64,000 nt of DNA, from NCBI RefSeq assembly GCF_029227855.1, contig NZ_CP074356.1; one strand, written 5' to 3'. The number at the start of each line of letters is the position of its first letter. Position 1 is the stretch's first letter. Made by a program: the position numbers and the translations under genes. Positions 52,973 to 62,791 of this stretch are shown here, piece by piece. The DNA is from Escherichia coli. Lineage in GTDB: Bacteria > Pseudomonadota > Gammaproteobacteria > Enterobacterales > Enterobacteriaceae. The notes below the pieces were generated by a model. It was given only the letters and a program-made list of their open reading frames with translations. It did no database searches and was not told where the DNA came from.

Positions 52973-55900
52973 ATGGGCAAAGGAAGCAGTAAGGGGCATA
53001 CCCCGCGCGAAGCGAAGGACAACCTGAAGTCCACGCAACTGCTGAGTGTGATTGATGCCATCAGCGAAGGGCCGATTGAAGGTCCGGTGGATGGATTAAA
53101 AAGCGTGCTGCTGAACAGTACGCCAGTGCTGGACACTGAGGGGAATACCAACATCTCCGGCGTCACGGTGGTGTTCCGGGCCGGTGAGCAGGAGCAGACA
53201 CCGCCGGAGGGATTTGAATCCTCCGGCTCCGAGACGGTGCTGGGTACGGAAGTGAAATACGACACGCCGATCACCCGGACCATCACGTCGGCAAACATTG
53301 ACCGACTGCGTTTTACCTTCGGCGTGCAGGCACTGGTGGAAACCACCTCAAAGGGGGACAGGAATCCGTCGGAAGTCCGCCTGCTGGTTCAGATACAACG
53401 TAACGGTGGCTGGGTGACGGAAAAAGACATCACCATTAAAGGCAAAACCACCTCACAGTATCTGGCCTCGGTGGTGGTGGGTAACCTGCCGCCGCGCCCG
53501 TTCAATATCCGGATGCGCAGGATGACGCCGGACAGCACCACAGACCAACTGCAGAACAAAACGCTCTGGTCGTCATACACCGAAATCATCGATGTGAAAC
53601 AGTGCTACCCGAACACGGCACTGGTTGGCGTGCAGGTGGACTCGGAGCAGTTCGGCAGCCAGCAGGTGAGCCGTAATTATCATCTTCGCGGGCGCATTCT
53701 GCAGGTGCCGTCGAACTATAACCCGCAGACGCGGCAATACAGCGGTATCTGGGACGGAACGTTAAAACCGGCATACAGCAACAACATGGCCTGGTGTCTG
53801 TGGGATATGCTGACCCATCCGCGCTACGGCATGGGGAAACGTCTTGGTGCGGCGGATGTGGATAAATGGGCGCTGTATGTCATCGGCCAGAATTGCGACC
53901 AGTCAGTGCCGGACGGCTTTGGCGGCACGGAGCCACGCATCACCTGTAATGCATACCTGGCCACACAGCGCAAGGCGTGGGATGTGCTCAGTGATTTCTG
54001 CTCGGCGATGCGCTGTATGCCGGTATGGAACGGGCAGACGCTGACGTTCGTGCAGGACCGACCGTCCGATAAGGTGTGGACCTATAACCGCAGTAATGTG
54101 GTGATGCCGGATGATGGCGCGCCGTTCCGCTACAGCTTCAGCGCCCTGAAGGACCGCCATAATGCCGTTGAGGTGAACTGGATTGACCCGGATAACGGCT
54201 GGGAGACGGCGACAGAGCTTGTGGAGGACACGCAGGCCATTGCCCGTTACGGTCGTAACGTCACGAAAATGGATGCTTTTGGCTGTACCAGCCGGGGGCA
54301 GGCACACCGCGCCGGGCTGTGGCTGATTAAAACGGAGCTGCTGGAAACGCAGACCGTGGACTTCAGCGTGGGCGCAGAAGGGCTGCGCCATGTACCGGGT
54401 GATGTTATTGAAATCTGCGATGATGACTATGCGGGGATCAGCATTGGCGGGCGCGTGCTGGCGGTGAACAGCCAGACCCGGACGCTGACGCTCGACCGTG
54501 AAATCACGCTGCCATCCTCCGGTACCACGCTGATAAGCCTGGTTGACGGAAGTGGCAATCCGGTCAGCGTGGAGGTTCAGTCCGTCACCGACGGCGTGAA
54601 GGTAAAAGTGAGCCGTGTTCCTGACGGCGTTGCCGGATACAGCGTATGGGGGCTGAAGCTGCCGACGCTGCGCCAGCGCCTGTTCCGCTGCGTGAGTATC
54701 CGTGAGAACGACGACGGCACGTATGCCATCACCGCCGTGCAGCATGTGCCGGAAAAAGAGGCCATCGTGGATAACGGGGCGCACTTTGACGGCGAACAGA
54801 GTGGCACGGTGAATGGTGTCACGCCGCCAGCGGTGCAGCACCTGACCGCAGAAGTCACTGCAGACAGCGGGGAATATCAGGTGCTGGCGCGATGGGACAC
54901 ACCGAAGGTGGTGAAGGGCGTGAGCTTCCTGCTCCGTCTGACCGTAACAGCGGACGACGGCAGTGAGCGGCTGGTCAGCACGGCCCGGACGACGGAAACA
55001 ACATACCGCTTCAGGCAGCTGGCGCTGGGGAACTACAGGCTGACAGTCCGGGCAGTAAATGCCTGGGGGCAGCAGGGAGACCCGGCGTCGGTATCGTTCC
55101 GGATTGCCGCACCGGCAGCGCCGTCACAGATTGAGCTGACTCCGGGCTATTTTCAGATAACCGCCACGCCGCATCTTGCGGTTTATGATCCGACGGTACA
55201 GTTTGAGTTCTGGTTCTCGGAAAAGCGGATTGCGGATATCAGGCAGGTTGAAACCACAGCACGCTATCTTGGCACGGCGCTGTACTGGATAGCCGCCAGT
55301 ATCAATATCAAACCGGGCCATGATTATTATTTTTACATCCGCAGTGTGAACACCGTTGGCAAATCGGCATTTGTGGAGGCTGTTGGCCAGCCGAGTGATG
55401 ATGCATCCGGCTATCTGAATTTTTTCAAAGGAGAGATAGGGAAAACCCATCTGGCTCAGGAGCTGTGGACGCAGATTGATAACGGTCAGCTTGCGCCTGA
55501 CCTGGCGGAAATCAGAACGTCCATCACGGATGTCAGTAATGAAATCACGCAGACCGTCAATAAGAAACTGGAAGACCAGAGTGCGGCAATCCAGCAGATA
55601 CAGAAGGTTCAGGTTGATACAAATAATAACCTGAACAGCATGTGGGCTGTGAAGCTGCAGCAGATGCAGGACGGACGCCTTTATATCGCGGGTATTGGTG
55701 CCGGTATTGAGAATACCCCTGACGGTATGCAGAGTCAGGTGCTGCTGGCGGCGGACAGGATTGCGATGATTAATCCTGCGAATGGCAACACAAAACCGAT
55801 GTTTGTTGGTCAGGGCGATCAGATATTCATGAACGAAGTGTTCCTGAAATATCTGACGGCTCCCACCATTACCAGCGGCGGTAATCCTCCGGCATTTTCC

Positions 55901-56452
55901 CTGACACCGGACGGGCGGCTGACGGCGAAAAATGCCGATATTAGCGGTAACGTGAATGCGAACTCCGGGACGCTCAACAACGTCACGATTAACGAGAACT
56001 GCCGGGTTCTGGGAAAACTGTCCGCGAACCAGATTGAAGGCGATCTCGTTAAAACAGTGGGCAAAGCTTTCCCCCGGGACTCCCGTGCACCGGAACGGTG
56101 GCCATCAGGGACCATTACCGTCAGGGTTTATGACGATCAGCCGTTTGACCGGCAGATTGTTATTCCGGCGGTGGCATTCAGCGGCGCTAAACATGAGAGA
56201 GAGCATACTGATATTTACTCCTCATGCCGTCTGATAGTGCGGAAAAACGGTGCTGAAATTTATAACCGTACCGCGCTGGATAATACGCTGATTTACAGTG
56301 GCGTTATTGATATGCCTGCCGGTCACGGTCACATGACGCTGGAGTTTTCGGTGTCAGCATGGCTGGTAAATGACTGGTATCCCACAGCAAGTATCAGCGA
56401 TCTGCTGGTTGTGGTGATGAAGAAAGCCACCGCAGGCATCAGTATCAGCTGA
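52973..56452 (+). CDS. J: Central tail fibre / host specificity protein J
   Basis: 1159 aa, lambda gpJ-like. Confidence 0.95.
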
Positions 56453-56519: not shown

Positions 56520-57119
56520 ATGCGTAAAGTTTGTGCCGCCATTTTTTCCGCAGCCATTTGTCTGGCCGTATCCGGTGCGCCTGCATGGGCATCTGAACAT
56601 CAGTCCACGCTGAGCGCGGGGTATCTTCATGCCTCGACGAACGTTCCCGGCAGCGATGATCTGAACGGGATTAACGTGAAATACCGTTATGAGTTTACGG
56701 ACACACTGGGGATGGTGACGTCATTCAGCTATGCAGGAGACAAGAATCGCCAGCTTACCCGTTACAGCGATACCCGCTGGCATGAAGATTCCGTGCGTAA
56801 CCGCTGGTTCAGCGTGATGGTGGGGCCGTCTGTGCGCGTGAATGAATGGTTCAGCGCGTATGCGATGGCGGGTATGGCTTACAGCCGTGTTTCGACTTTC
56901 TCCGGAGATTATATCCGCGTAACTGACAACAAGGGGAAAACGCACGATGTGCTGACCGGAAGTGATGACGGTCGCCACAGCGACACGTCTCTGGCATGGG
57001 GGGCTGGCGTGCAGTTTAACCCGACCGAATCCGTGGCCATTGATATTGCTTATGAAGGTTCCGGCAGTGGCGACTGGCGCACTGACGGTTTCATCGTGGG
57101 TGTCGGTTATAAATTCTGA
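56520..57119 (+). CDS. lom: Outer-membrane protein Lom (Ail/Lom family)
   Basis: 199 aa with signal peptide and beta-barrel ending ..GVGYKF. Confidence 0.85.
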
Positions 57120-57177: not shown

Positions 57178-59583
57178 GTGGATATGGCAGCAGTAAAAAT
57201 CTCAGGTGTGCTGAAAGATGGTGCGGGAAAACCAATACAGAACTGCACTATTCAACTGAAGGCAAAGCGTAACAGCACCACGGTACTGGTGAACACGGTG
57301 GCCTCTGAAAATCCGGATGAAGCCGGGCGTTACAGCATGGATGTTGAGTATGGCCAGTACAGCGTCACCCTGCTGGTTGAAGGTTTTCCGCCTTCGCATG
57401 CCGGGACCATTACCGTCTATGAAGGTTCCAGACCAGGTACGCTGAATGATTTTCTCGGTGCCATGACGGAAGAGGATGTCATGCCGGAGGCATTGCGCCG
57501 TTTTGAGGAAATGGTGGAAGAAGCGGCACGCAACGCCGAAGCCGCCTCTCAGAGCGCAGCGGCGGCAAAGAAATCCGAAACGGCTGCGGCATCATCGAAG
57601 AACGCGGCGAAAACCTCAGAAACGAATGCAGCTAATAGTGCACAGGCGGCAGCGACCTCAAAGACTGCATCGGCAAACTCCGCGACAGCAGCCAAAAAAT
57701 CAGAAACCAACGCGAAAAATAGCGAGACAGCCGCAAAGACGAGCGAAACCAACGCAAAGTCCAGCCAGACGGCAGCGAAAACCAGCGAAACGAATGCCAA
57801 AGCCAGTGAAACTGCGGCAAAAAACAGCCAGGTTGCAGCAGCCCAAAGCGAGAGCGCGGCAGCCGGTTCTGCGACTTCAGCAGCTGGATCAGCAACTGCT
57901 GCGGCTAACAGCCAGAAAGCTGCGAAGACGAGTGAAACTAACGCAAAGTCCAGCCAGACGGCAGCGAAGACCAGCGAAACGAATGCCAAAGCCAGCGAAA
58001 CTGCGGCGAAAAACAGCCAGGTTGCAGCAGCCCAAAGCGAGAGCGCGGCAGCTGGTTCTGCAAGCGCGGCGGCTGCTTCTGCCACTGCATCAGCCAACAG
58101 TCAAAAAGCGGCAAAAACCAGTGAAACCAATGCAAAGACAAGCGAGACTGCAGCGGCGAACTCGGCGAAAGCATCGGCAGCAAGCCAGACAGCAGCTAAA
58201 GCAAGTGAAGACGCAGCCAGAGAGTATGCAAGTCAGGCAGCAGAGCCGTATAAATATGTCTTACAGCCACTGCCTGATGTGTGGATACCGTTTAACGATT
58301 CACTGGATATGATTACGGGCTTTTCGCCGTCATATAAAAAAATTGTTATTGGTGATGATGAAATAACGATGCCTGGCGACAAGGTTGTTAAGTTTAAACG
58401 CGCATCAACTGCCACATATATCAATAAATCAGGCGTATTTAGTGTTGCTAAAATTGATGAGCCACGATTTGAAAAAGAAGGTTTATTGATTGAAGGACAG
58501 CGCACTAACTATTTTGTTAAATCCAATACTCCCGCTGAATGGACGAGTACCAGCAATATCGATAAAACTAATAATGGTGTTGATGAATTTGGTTTTTCAT
58601 ATGCCAAAATGCGAACAAAAGATAATATGACAGGACAATCATCTGCACTTAGTCTGCATACATGCAGTGCATCCCGGGGGATTGATGTTAGTGGCGATAA
58701 TAAGTATTGCACTGTTTCATGCAGGGTTAAAGCTCCTGATGGTCTTCGTTGTCGTTTGCGTTTTGAAAAATACGATGGGTCGGTTTATACATTTTTAGGA
58801 GATGCTTATTTAACTTTCGGAACTCTGATAATAGAAAAAACTGGCGGAGCAGCCAATAGAATAGCAGCTACTGCAACTAAAGATCCGGTTACAGGGTGGA
58901 TTTTCTATGAGGCAACTATAGAAGCTGTTGAAGGTGAAGCCTTAATTGGCGCAATGATTCAGTATGCGCCGAAAAAAGGTGGTATAACTGAAGCGGGAGA
59001 TTATATTTACCTTGCAACACCACAATTTGAAAACGGCGGATGTGCTTCATCTTTTGTTATTACGACAACTGCACCCGCAACCCGCTCCAGTGATATGGTG
59101 ACGATCCCAACTGAAAATAATATCTATAATAGACCGCTTACGTGTCTTGTCGAGGTCAATAGAAATTGGGGCGATATTCCTCCTAATGTAGCACCGCGTA
59201 TTTTTGATTTTTCTGGTGTGCCACCTATTGAGTCAATTACATACGCTTTTAACACAACTGAGAAATATTACGGTCAGCTTTATATACAAACTTATAAAGC
59301 GTCGACAAGTACTTACGTTTCTAGTGTGTTTGCTGGTCGAACTGATGTTCGAAAATTCATTGGTGGTTTTAATATTTATTCTGATGGTACTAAACGAGTA
59401 GTTTCTAACGGTGAGGCTACTAAAACTATGAAAACGGAGTGGACGGGCGTAAAAACACGGACCTTTATTCGAATTGGAGGTCAAGCCACATCGGGAACTC
59501 GTCATCTATTCGGCCATTTGAGAAATCTTCGTCTCTGGCATAAAGAATTAACTGATGCGCAAATGGGGGAGAGTATTAAATGA
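57178..59583 (+). CDS. stf: Side tail fibre protein with internal tandem repeats
   Basis: 801 aa; lambda Stf-like N-terminus; Ser/Ala/Thr-rich repeats; lower-GC C-terminal domain. Confidence 0.8.
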   Translation: MDMAAVKISGVLKDGAGKPIQNCTIQLKAKRNSTTVLVNTVASENPDEAGRYSMDVEYGQYSVTLLVEGFPPSHAGTITVYEGSRPGTLNDFLGAMTEEDVMPEALRRFEEMVEEAARNAEAASQSAAAAKKSETAAASSKNAAKTSETNAANSAQAAATSKTASANSATAAKKSETNAKNSETAAKTSETNAKSSQTAAKTSETNAKASETAAKNSQVAAAQSESAAAGSATSAAGSATAAANSQKAAKTSETNAKSSQTAAKTSETNAKASETAAKNSQVAAAQSESAAAGSASAAAASATASANSQKAAKTSETNAKTSETAAANSAKASAASQTAAKASEDAAREYASQAAEPYKYVLQPLPDVWIPFNDSLDMITGFSPSYKKIVIGDDEITMPGDKVVKFKRASTATYINKSGVFSVAKIDEPRFEKEGLLIEGQRTNYFVKSNTPAEWTSTSNIDKTNNGVDEFGFSYAKMRTKDNMTGQSSALSLHTCSASRGIDVSGDNKYCTVSCRVKAPDGLRCRLRFEKYDGSVYTFLGDAYLTFGTLIIEKTGGAANRIAATATKDPVTGWIFYEATIEAVEGEALIGAMIQYAPKKGGITEAGDYIYLATPQFENGGCASSFVITTTAPATRSSDMVTIPTENNIYNRPLTCLVEVNRNWGDIPPNVAPRIFDFSGVPPIESITYAFNTTEKYYGQLYIQTYKASTSTYVSSVFAGRTDVRKFIGGFNIYSDGTKRVVSNGEATKTMKTEWTGVKTRTFIRIGGQATSGTRHLFGHLRNLRLWHKELTDAQMGESIK

Positions 59584-59861
59584 AAGATTTAACACTCAAA
59601 TTTGCAGACAGGGCCGACTTTTCGGCCTTTATGGAGAGCATTGGCTATTATGATGACGAGTCGATGCAGGATGATATTCTTATTGACGTGATAGGTAATG
59701 TGTACAAAGAAACCGGAGAACTGACTGAAGATGGCGAACCGGTATGTGTTAAGGAAGACGGATATTTTGTAAACGTGCGCATCATTAATGATTCGCAAAT
59801 ATCGTCAATATTCGATGAATACGTGGTTGCTGTTGAGCATCAACTTCGTGGCTGGATGTGA
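59580..59861 (+). CDS. Hypothetical tail-fibre-associated protein (93 aa)
   Basis: Start overlaps the stf stop. Confidence 0.45.
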   Translation: MKDLTLKFADRADFSAFMESIGYYDDESMQDDILIDVIGNVYKETGELTEDGEPVCVKEDGYFVNVRIINDSQISSIFDEYVVAVEHQLRGWM

Positions 59862-59870
59862 GGAAGAAAA

Positions 59871-60911
59871 ATGGCTACATCGACAGTAATTCCTGATGAC
59901 ATCAAAACGCTAAAATCCGACGTTAGCAAATTAAAAAACGATCAAGGAAGCTACGCAACAAAATTATATGTAGACAGCAAAGATGAAATCGTTGGTGACT
60001 GGTCTGTTTCATGGTATCAGCAGGTATTGCCAACTAGCGGAGCTATATTTGGGAGAAAACTCCGCTCAACTCACAGGACGGCAGGTGTTGAGGATGCGTA
60101 TTGCGAACTATACCTCAAAAAATGGATAGACAGTCCAGGTAACGCAATGGCGCGCCTTAACCTGAACGATAACGGGACAAACATTTGCTGGGACTTTACC
60201 AACCTTTATGGCGGTACGATGATTTTTCCCGGTGACAGCGGATACCTCAAAATGGGTAACTGCCTTATGTCATACAGCAAGCGTGGAAGTAACGCGCTTA
60301 TTAAATTTGATTACACCGACACATTACAGATCAAATATGCCAATCATGGGTCAACCATGACATTAAACACACAGGGAACCGCTTATGCTGGTGTTACTGC
60401 TCAATTGTGGGGCAACTCCAGCCGTCCTGTTGTTTATGAAGTCGGTGTTGATGGTGGCGCTTATATGTTCTATGCGCAGAAAAATACCGATAACACCTAT
60501 ATGTTAAGCGTTAATGGTGCATGTCATGCCACCGCATTTAACCAGCATTCCGACCGGGATCTGAAAGACAACATTCAGGTGATCGATAATGCAACCGACC
60601 GCATCCGTAAAATGAACGGCTATACATACACGCTTAAAGAAAACGGTATGCCCTATGCTGGTGTCATTGCACAGGAAGCTCTGGAAGCAATCCCAGAAGT
60701 TGTAGGTTCCGCAATGAAATATCAGGACGGTGCGAGCGGATCGGAAGGTGAAGAAGGTGAACGTTATTACACAGTAGATTATTCTGGTGTTACTGGCTTG
60801 CTTGTTCAGGTAGCCAGAGAGTCAGACGACAGAATAACAGCACTGGAAGAAGAAAACGCAGAATTAAGACAAAGATTATCTGCAATTGATGCGGCGCTTG
60901 CGTCTAAATAA
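59871..60911 (+). CDS. Second tail fibre/spike protein with C-terminal intramolecular-chaperone (S74-like) domain
   Basis: C-terminus ..HQHSDRDLKDNIQVIDNATDRIRKMNGYTYTLKENGMPYAGVIAQEALEAIPEVV.. resembles the autoproteolytic chaperone module. Confidence 0.65.
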   Translation: MATSTVIPDDIKTLKSDVSKLKNDQGSYATKLYVDSKDEIVGDWSVSWYQQVLPTSGAIFGRKLRSTHRTAGVEDAYCELYLKKWIDSPGNAMARLNLNDNGTNICWDFTNLYGGTMIFPGDSGYLKMGNCLMSYSKRGSNALIKFDYTDTLQIKYANHGSTMTLNTQGTAYAGVTAQLWGNSSRPVVYEVGVDGGAYMFYAQKNTDNTYMLSVNGACHATAFNQHSDRDLKDNIQVIDNATDRIRKMNGYTYTLKENGMPYAGVIAQEALEAIPEVVGSAMKYQDGASGSEGEEGERYYTVDYSGVTGLLVQVARESDDRITALEEENAELRQRLSAIDAALASK

Positions 60912-61247: not shown

Positions 61248-61386
61248 AAAAAGGTGGGCTGTATATGCAACGGAGGAAGAAACCACGTTGCTGGAAGCCT
61301 GGAAGAAGTATCGGGTGTTGCTGAACCGTGTTAATACAACAACTGCACCGGATATTGAATGGCCAACAGTACCCATTATCGAATAG
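61240..61386 (+). pseudogene. tfa: Tail fibre assembly protein (Tfa) C-terminal remnant
   Basis: ..[34 protein letters not shown] matches the conserved Tfa C-terminus; no N-terminal region. Confidence 0.5.
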
Positions 61387-61459: not shown

Positions 61460-62791
61460 TTATTTTGAGTGAATTATCACCTTGTTTTTTCCGGTTCTTT
61501 TGGCTTGATATAACGCTTTGTCGGCATTGACTAACATTTCAGATGGACTGAGATTATTCTCTTTTGAAGCAAAGCAACCAATACTGACAGTTATTTTCTC
61601 AGGTCCATGCGATAATAATTTTTCCGAGCATTGCTCTTCAATGTTTTTTCTGATTCGCTCTGCAATTGATAGCAAGAGTTTTTGAGTATTACCTTTAATG
61701 ATAATACCGAACTCCTCACCGCCTAAGCGCCCTAATATATCCTCTTTCCTGATGGATTTTTTTATTATTCTGGTAACCATTACTATGACTTGATCACCCA
61801 TATGATGCCCCCATTTGTCATTGATGCTTTTGAAACTGTCAATATCTAACATTATTACTGAGAAATCATGGTGTTTTGATATATTCTTCAATGAGTCAAT
61901 AAAGTATCTTCTATTGTATGTATTCGTTAGTGGATCATGAATTGCCATATGATTAGCATGATTTAATTTCCTGAAAACATAATACATGAGTGTTGAAATG
62001 ATATAAATCATTGATATCAATTCAAGAAATTTTGTCATGTACCATGCAGGATGGGATTTATCAATAAAATACAATAAAATTAGATTATTGCATACTGACA
62101 CTATACTAATAAGTATTATACACAACCATATTTTTGAGTAATTACGTATGCTGATGCATGAGCTGATAAGTAATACAAGCCAAAATACTGATATTATTTT
62201 GGTGTACACGATATTCCACGTCGACAAATGACGATTCAGCGAGTATTGTATAATATTAAGACTATATTTTATATGGTCACTGCTTAGATTTTTTGCTACA
62301 AACGGAGTAATAAAAAGAATTAATATTGACAAAACAACAATTATTATGTTTCTTTTATCTTCTAAAATACTTTTATTTTTAACATTGGTGGAATAAACAG
62401 CCAGAAAGATTATAGATATAAAGCTGAACTGACGGAATAGATAATATATTGCGATATCATTTGATTTCTGATAGATTGTAGATAAATCGTTACCTAACGG
62501 AGATAAAGAAATAATAGCCACTTCTAATAAATAATACGTGTTGCTCAAAAACGCGAATGAAAGAATTAAGAGATAACTTTGTCTCTGATTAGAAACATAG
62601 TAAAGCAATAGAAAAATAAAAATCATCAGGTTTATGAAAAAAAGCCCAATAATGAAAACACTATAACTTATTTGTGTTGTTTGTGTTATGTATATTCCAT
62701 TATTTTCATGCAGTAACAAAAATATAATAGAGATGCATGAAAATAAAAAGATGAAGATTTTTATTTTTATAGGTACCTGGTTGATAATCAT
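61460..62791 (-). CDS. Membrane-anchored diguanylate cyclase (GGDEF domain), AT-rich moron at prophage right end
   Basis: N-terminal multi-TM region; C-terminal GGDEF with RLGGEEFGII active-site motif. Confidence 0.8.
   Translation of the reverse strand: MIINQVPIKIKIFIFLFSCISIIFLLLHENNGIYITQTTQISYSVFIIGLFFINLMIFIFLLLYYVSNQRQSYLLILSFAFLSNTYYLLEVAIISLSPLGNDLSTIYQKSNDIAIYYLFRQFSFISIIFLAVYSTNVKNKSILEDKRNIIIVVLSILILFITPFVAKNLSSDHIKYSLNIIQYSLNRHLSTWNIVYTKIISVFWLVLLISSCISIRNYSKIWLCIILISIVSVCNNLILLYFIDKSHPAWYMTKFLELISMIYIISTLMYYVFRKLNHANHMAIHDPLTNTYNRRYFIDSLKNISKHHDFSVIMLDIDSFKSINDKWGHHMGDQVIVMVTRIIKKSIRKEDILGRLGGEEFGIIIKGNTQKLLLSIAERIRKNIEEQCSEKLLSHGPEKITVSIGCFASKENNLSPSEMLVNADKALYQAKRTGKNKVIIHSK

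Follow-up and report, generated by a model that had tools for sequence, protein, structure and literature searches.

Among the closest described counterparts of the gene considered here is the side tail fibre protein (Stf) of Ur-lambda. Its N-terminal domain acts as a collar that fixes the fibre to the tail tip, and residues 102-393 form a proximal trimeric coiled coil, seen by cryo-electron microscopy and tomography, which a flexible linker joins to the collar (PMC12617516). In E. coli prophage fibres, the segment composed of the PfN and PCoil regions is trimeric and alpha-helical according to size-exclusion chromatography with multi-angle laser light scattering, circular dichroism, and rotary-shadowing electron microscopy (PMC3368898). 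PCoil regions are rich in Ala, Ser, and Glu, of low complexity and loosely periodic over seven residues, and they differ in length by multiples of seven (Ghosh et al. 2012, PMC3368898). Here, we compare these systems with stf, the side tail fibre gene of an Escherichia coli lambdoid prophage carried on a stretch of 64,000 nucleotides (contig NZ_CP074356.1; hereafter, the window). The coiled-coil rod of this lambda-type Stf very probably contains an old in-frame duplication of nine heptads.

In-register gain or loss of coiled-coil repeats alters length and leaves the end domains undisturbed in T4 fibritin, tape-measure proteins, and the stalks of trimeric autotransporter adhesins. These proteins belong to families different from that of the window Stf, although one distant match (P0164) carries a YadA-stalk Pfam domain. 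The gene, its protein (in RefSeq), the Ala/Ser heptad rod, and heptad-quantised length variation have all been described before. The features on which the argument depends are the following, with positions numbered along the window.

57184-59583, plus strand: side tail fibre gene stf, 799 amino acids (aa) from its ATG (open reading frame list; RefSeq WP_167784518.1; PF08400; phrog_1419)
57196-57585, plus strand: N-terminal collar or PfN domain, aa 5-134 (PF08400)
57490-58245, plus strand: coiled-coil shaft (PCoil, or proximal coiled coil) of 36 heptads, aa 103-354 (heptad print-out)
57727-57915, plus strand: copy 1 of the 189-bp unit, 63 aa or 9 heptads (Tandem Repeats Finder, self-comparison)
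57916-58104, plus strand: copy 2 of the 189-bp unit (Tandem Repeats Finder, self-comparison)
58105-58155, plus strand: partial third copy holding the head of the unit (KAAKTSETNAK...), a downstream flanking repeat that frames the array (2.3 copies in Tandem Repeats Finder; positions of the AAKTSETNAK motif)
57730-57873, plus strand: 48-aa stretch AAKTSETNAKSSQTAAKTSETNAKASETAAKNSQVAAAQSESAAAGSA in copy 1, with the same protein sequence as its partner in copy 2 (translation comparison)
57919-58062, plus strand: 48-aa stretch AAKTSETNAKSSQTAAKTSETNAKASETAAKNSQVAAAQSESAAAGSA in copy 2 (translation comparison)

The initial annotation had called this gene a side tail fibre, and the label is correct for the collar and the rod because of matches to PF08400, the solved Ur-lambda collar, and phrog_1419. 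PF08400 ('prophage tail fibre N-terminal') aligns with aa 5-134 at an E-value of 2.2e-66 and 222 bits (cut-off 26.6). The collar of Ur-lambda Stf (PDB 9e7m/9mgh, residues 2-94) matches aa 3-95 in phmmer (E=8.6e-49), and phrog_1419, a 'tail protein' family, matches the protein end to end with 1431 bits. The translation is identical to RefSeq WP_167784518.1, which starts from the ATG at 57184; a GTG at 57178 is in frame as well. The gene also follows J and lom in the tail module, in the order J, lom, stf known from lambda.

The likeness to Ur-lambda Stf extends beyond gene position. A Foldseek alignment of the window model to 9e7m gives 88% identity over the common collar domain, an Ala/Ser/Thr-rich heptad rod sets in near residue 102, and ~86% identity holds at the DNA level for the first third of the gene. 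Past about aa 170, however, the shaft sequences diverge, and lambda lacks the 63-aa unit. EPclA and EPclB share the PF08400 domain followed directly by an Ala/Ser/Glu-rich region of seven-residue periodicity, but continue into collagen triple helices and PfC, whereas the window Stf lacks collagen repeats and ends in another kind of C-terminal module; the paper describing them does not discuss this specific 63-aa tandem duplication (PMC3368898). Near-identical heptads also occur at residues 131-170 of DpK2 from Klebsiella phage RAD2 (7LZJ), a region described as an extended N-terminal triple-helical bundle (PMC8552709). This match is short (40 residues, E ~1e-3), and DpK2 differs in being a tailspike with a beta-helix depolymerase body, its bundle having been seen at low resolution and not modelled atomically.

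The 189-bp in-frame tandem duplication in stf is real. Tandem Repeats Finder reports a period of 189 bp with 2.3 copies, 85% matches, and no indels across 57721-58155, together with nested periodicities of 21 and 42 bp in the same region. The initial annotation had placed a tandem duplication of ~190 bp with two near-identical copies at 57740-58070. Its coordinates lie within the array and take in the greater part of both copies, and its unit size stands; near-identity, on the other hand, is confined to the first ~140 nt, about three quarters of the unit. Over the full 189-nt units, copies 1 and 2 are 86.8% identical. The best segment at offset 189 pairs 57736-57872 with 57925-58061 (137 nt, 95.6% identity), while the final 52 nt of the two copies agree at only ~65% of positions. 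The longest exact match between copies is 44 nt. Background heptad periodicity is insufficient to produce this signal because other in-frame offsets reach at most 68% identity over 137 nt, and codon shuffles (n=200) at most 57%. No further copies of the unit were found in the window beyond the 57721-58155 array.

The repeated peptide segment noted earlier is borne out at the protein level, where the 48-aa core is encoded twice with no amino-acid change. At the DNA level, 9 of its 144 nt differ between the copies, all at synonymous third-codon positions.

The position of the repeat within the rod defines its probable consequence. From aa 103 to aa 354, 36 heptads follow one another with no interruption and the consensus S-[EAQ]-T-[AN]-A-[KA]-x; position 1 is Ser in 32 of the 36, position 5 is Ala in 32, and position 4 is Ala in 25. 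These small residues would line one face of the helices. Such Ala/Ser-rich, low-complexity sequence with seven-residue periodicity directly after PfN is what characterises PCoil. By homology and published work, the rod is probably a coiled coil, trimeric and alpha-helical. Judged from lambda and from PfN-PCoil biochemistry, the fibre would be a homotrimer borne on the virion. The 189-bp unit encodes 63 residues, or exactly 9 heptads, and the coiled-coil register is intact across the duplication because the unit consists of whole heptads. At ~0.1485 nm per residue, each unit would add ~9.4 nm, giving calculated rods of ~37 nm for the two-copy form, ~28 nm for the one-copy form, and ~22 nm in alleles that are 15 heptads shorter. 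The earlier statement that a change in repeat number would alter fibre length thus gains support by inference, from the nine in-register heptads of the unit and from natural alleles with one copy or with 15 heptads fewer.

An alternative view holds that the duplicated Ala/Gly-rich tail AAAGSATSAAGSATAAAN adds a flexible joint and not merely length. All three Gly residues of the shaft lie within the duplicated unit, and the AlphaFold2 (AF2) monomer model breaks its helix at 224-239 with a predicted local distance difference test score (pLDDT) of ~35. A hinge is present in lambda Stf, but past its coiled coil, at residues 394-422 (PMC12617516). The heptad register nevertheless runs unbroken through the tail with the Gly residues at the variable position 7, AF2 predicts the equivalent stretch of copy 2 to be helical, and some fold-back is to be expected when a trimeric rod is modelled as a monomer. 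An added hinge is, on this evidence, improbable. AF2 was run on the full-length monomer and, given low confidence for collar and rod, was used for helix propensity and the C-terminal fold. It places helices at aa 102-223 and 240-353, with rod pLDDT values of 35-67.

Comparison of copy number among related prophages, which the initial annotation had proposed as a check, shows that copy-number variation is rare and not rapid. Dozens of finished E. coli genomes carry the whole 2406-bp gene uninterrupted and unchanged in length, with 99-100% identity; in phage PhiR49_1, its identity is 98.5%. The 661-bp two-copy shaft is contiguous in ~1,002 of 5,426 complete E. coli genomes; the corresponding 472-bp one-copy query is contiguous in only ~10. 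Phages 2G7b, PhiR46_1, HannyBb, and PhiR49_1 carry two copies, and IdasGreatGrand carries one (minus 63 aa). The shafts of PhiR40_1 and Lambda_2E9 are 15 heptads (105 aa) shorter than that of the window. In PhiR47_1, the second unit has a tail 7 aa shorter, followed by a different rod end, for an overall loss of 13 aa. A literature search on the PhiR (ECOR13) phages returned no describing paper.

Length classes were further defined on 111 representatives of protein clusters carrying both flanking markers. The shaft measures 198 aa in 48 of them and 261 aa in 45, so that the main classes lie 63 aa apart, and minor classes differ by 7, 14, 28, and 77 residues. Alleles with at least three copies were absent from 170 retrieved proteins (a non-exhaustive set) and from 60 evenly sampled genome records. 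When a synthetic three-copy protein was compared with a collection of 5.8 billion proteins, in a non-exhaustive search that scored 8,000 word-sharing candidates, the top matches covered at most 73% of the query, equivalent to two copies. The matching DNA query is uninformative on coverage, since pieces overlapping on the target are joined and two-copy records score 100%; every record listed spans 661 bp, again two copies.

These distributions bear on two further explanations. One is an assembly artefact, in which the second copy was mis-assembled from a single-copy repeat or, conversely, a true longer array was collapsed. Tandem repeats are prone to mis-assembly, and many database proteins of this Stf family are partial and end at contig breaks. 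Yet the gene is contiguous at near-identity in independently finished genomes, the two-copy shaft recurs in the ~1,002 complete genomes and in isolated phages, fixed differences between copies 1 and 2 occur at the same positions across phages, and an exact inter-copy match of 44 nt is easily resolved by ordinary reads. The chance of an artefact is negligible.

The second is a hypervariable contingency repeat whose fast expansion and contraction would switch fibre length at high frequency. One-copy and two-copy alleles on 98-99% identical backgrounds, and length classes 1, 2, 4, 9, 11, and 15 heptads apart, point in this direction. The array itself does not resemble a variable-number tandem repeat, defined by many near-identical units whose copy number differs among close relatives: it has just 2.3 copies, diverged over their full length, and same-position copies are conserved across phages. 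The two-copy form outnumbers the one-copy form by ~100:1 in complete genomes, no allele with at least three copies appears among the 170 retrieved proteins or the top matches of the three-copy query, and a unit that is a multiple of 3 makes on/off switching of expression impossible. Rapid switching is therefore very unlikely.

The reading we favour, an old and stably kept in-frame duplication, follows from comparing the copies within and between genomes. Across five two-copy phages and prophages, identity is 94-100% between same-position copies but 83-87% between the two copies of a single genome. Because identity across phages exceeds that within genomes, the duplication predates the divergence of the two-copy phages and has been stably inherited. 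Among two-copy relatives, 52 of 71 variable sites fall at third positions of the stf frame, and this, together with the exclusively synonymous differences in the core, indicates purifying selection on the Stf protein. Identity of the 137-nt core is higher in the window (95.6%) than in relatives (90.5-92.7%), which is compatible with, rather than proof of, a small gene-conversion patch in the window.

One-copy alleles are informative about the direction of change. Three one-copy proteins (P0049, P0051, P0055) are set apart from that of the window by 8-10 substitutions and an exact 63-aa gap, and some one-copy proteins are otherwise 99% identical to the window protein. Outside the gap, one such allele (L010) and the window share 98.1% DNA identity. 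The single unit of L010 is chimeric, resembling copy 1 at unit positions 2-81 and copy 2 from position 93; hence, a crossover would have taken place within the near-identical core of a two-copy parent. The opposite direction, in which the present one-copy allele was simply duplicated, was considered and rejected, because it cannot yield the distinct tail of copy 1. For that reason, the one-copy form on the genetic background of the window is best read as a rare deletion derivative.

Several observations weigh against the favoured reading as a whole. The AF2 monomer has low confidence (mean pLDDT 61), and monomer modelling is uninformative on a trimer. The helix break at aa 224-239 falls in the Gly-containing tail of copy 1, so that a local hinge is possible. 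Seven of the 13 shaft length classes are not multiples of seven; six of these are singletons, and the seventh, with 7 representatives and a deficit of 13 aa, ends its shaft differently. Lastly, the ~65% identity of the 52-nt tails is at odds with a simple recent duplication. One possibility is that the duplication is ancient, with conservation or homogenising gene conversion having kept its core alike; the other is that recombination later replaced the tail.

Taken mechanistically, the rod would connect the N-terminal collar, by which the fibre is clamped onto the tail tip, with the distal receptor-binding half. A whole-heptad insert would leave the register unbroken, so that a rod longer by ~9.4 nm would be its sole structural effect. 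Direct repeats coding for AAKTSETNAK lie 189 bp apart, and in a one-copy allele they share ~80% identity over ~45 nt. We infer that the most likely source of the duplication is unequal homologous recombination, or slippage during replication, between such heptad-coding direct repeats. Afterwards, it would have been stably inherited under purifying selection, with crossing-over in the near-identical core occasionally causing its loss and giving rise to the rare one-copy alleles.

Recombination on a larger scale is suggested by several features of the gene family. Parts of stf match 16,868 places in 4,844 of the 5,426 complete E. coli genomes (median 2, maximum 14 per genome); a single cell thus houses several stf-bearing prophages. 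Similarity to PhiR47_1 and to H102/H103 stops at shaft positions such as window 58074, consistent with the rod serving as a recombination joint between collar and tip modules.

The shaft is also stop-free in frames other than that of stf, and two overlapping open reading frames (ORFs) result.

57549-58097, minus strand: antisense ORF of 182 aa with a TTG start, rich in Ala, Leu, Phe, and Val, judged a by-product of composition (ORF list, RefSeq, composition)
57476-58312, plus strand: +1-frame ORF of 278 aa, rich in Arg, Gln, Lys, and Pro, judged spurious (ORF list, substitution counts)

If either were a second gene, the repeat could be conserved for its sake. Both frames are open across the whole shaft, and the antisense ORF has a weak match (E=1.7e-7) to phrog_560, a family of unknown function. 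Among relatives, synonymous and non-synonymous substitutions number 87 and 25 in stf, 77 and 35 in the antisense frame, and 10 and 102 in the +1 frame. Antisense and stf frames share their wobble positions, for which reason the antisense ORF stays open and its changes are mostly synonymous; the excess arises automatically, is still below that of stf, and does not discriminate. Conservation of open length was used instead, and it falls from 183 to 155 codons in a phage relative that is 98.5% identical. In addition, the ORF begins with TTG, its low-complexity Ala/Leu/Phe/Val composition mirrors the GCN, AAR, and AGC codons of the sense strand, and RefSeq has no annotation for it in the identical locus. 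The +1-frame ORF, which had no mention in the initial annotation, combines its substitution pattern with the absence of any PHROG match. A second gene is thus extremely improbable, and the description of the antisense ORF as spurious in the initial annotation is supported, though not proven, by composition and loss of open length. As a side observation, phrog_560 may partly consist of antisense mis-calls over Ala-rich fibre rods.

Beyond the rod, the protein departs from lambda.

58246-59580, plus strand: distal, presumed receptor-binding half of Stf, aa 355-799 (NF048003, AF2 model, Foldseek)
52973-56452: gpJ, 1159 aa (ORF list and family match)
56520-57119: Ail/Lom protein (ORF list and family match)

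NCBIfam NF048003 ('phage head spike fiber domain') matches aa 435-635, and the AF2 model reaches pLDDT 75-94 at aa 450-620. Foldseek matches of the distal half are ConA-like/LamG jelly rolls, comprising CBM40 sialic-acid-binding modules, botulinum toxin Hc, laminin G, pentraxin, and the Pa193 tail fibre 9b45. The model suggests a glycan-binding tip. In lambda, the tip is gp37-like and not a ConA-like jelly roll; neither a gp37-type distal domain nor an intact tfa after stf was found in the window, and DNA similarity to lambda ends within the shaft. The window Stf appears to be a mosaic, with a collar and rod of Stf type and a different tip, because its distal half matches NF048003 and ConA-like folds and only a tfa remnant lies downstream. 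That remnant (~61267-61386, plus strand) is partial and lacks its N-terminus in the RefSeq annotation of the YZLc1-3 locus, and it suggests that an earlier lambda-like stf-tfa module was replaced.

The identical stf locus of E. coli YZLc1-3 lies at the end of a lambdoid prophage tail module and adjoins zinT and msrQ in RefSeq, with the gene order L, C40 peptidase, tail assembly protein, J, Lom, and tail fibre. Directly after stf, a 93-aa ORF (59580-59861, plus strand) overlaps the stf stop codon (ATGA), matches phrog_1361 (function unknown), and has no Pfam match. Every relative examined keeps it, at the place of lambda's tfa, and it may serve the fibre as a chaperone or adaptor. A second fibre protein of 346 aa follows (59871-60911, plus strand) with a Peptidase_S74 intramolecular-chaperone domain at aa 227-278 and a phrog_4563 match; some relatives have a 234-aa version in its place. 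Past the tail-fibre module, an AT-rich ORF of 443 aa (61460-62791, minus strand) combines an N-terminal multi-pass membrane region with C-terminal GGDEF-type diguanylate cyclase sequence. Its YZLc1-3 equivalent is a frameshifted 'sensor domain-containing diguanylate cyclase' in RefSeq, and it may be prophage cargo or adjoining host DNA.

Beyond annotation, the significance of the duplication is small, and the finding is real but ordinary. For gene prediction, antisense and +1-frame ORFs that stay open across the low-complexity rod should be skipped. Occasional deletion can take place at the near-identical core of 137 bp, so copy number is worth checking in short-read assemblies. Shaft-length alleles of ~22, 28, and 37 nm (21, 27, and 36 heptads) could be adaptive, with fibre reach matched to the thickness of O-antigen or capsule or to the tip, but we consider this rather doubtful. 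If it were true, the nine-heptad unit would be a natural 'length cassette' exchanged by recombination among co-resident stf-bearing prophages. The string 'SASAAA' does not occur in the Eligo base-editing paper, and its proposal as an Stf fusion site named there was rejected. For the engineering of chimeric lambda Stf for delivery, the shaft-length alleles offer natural evidence that the rod tolerates the gain or loss of 9 or 15 heptads with its end domains unchanged.

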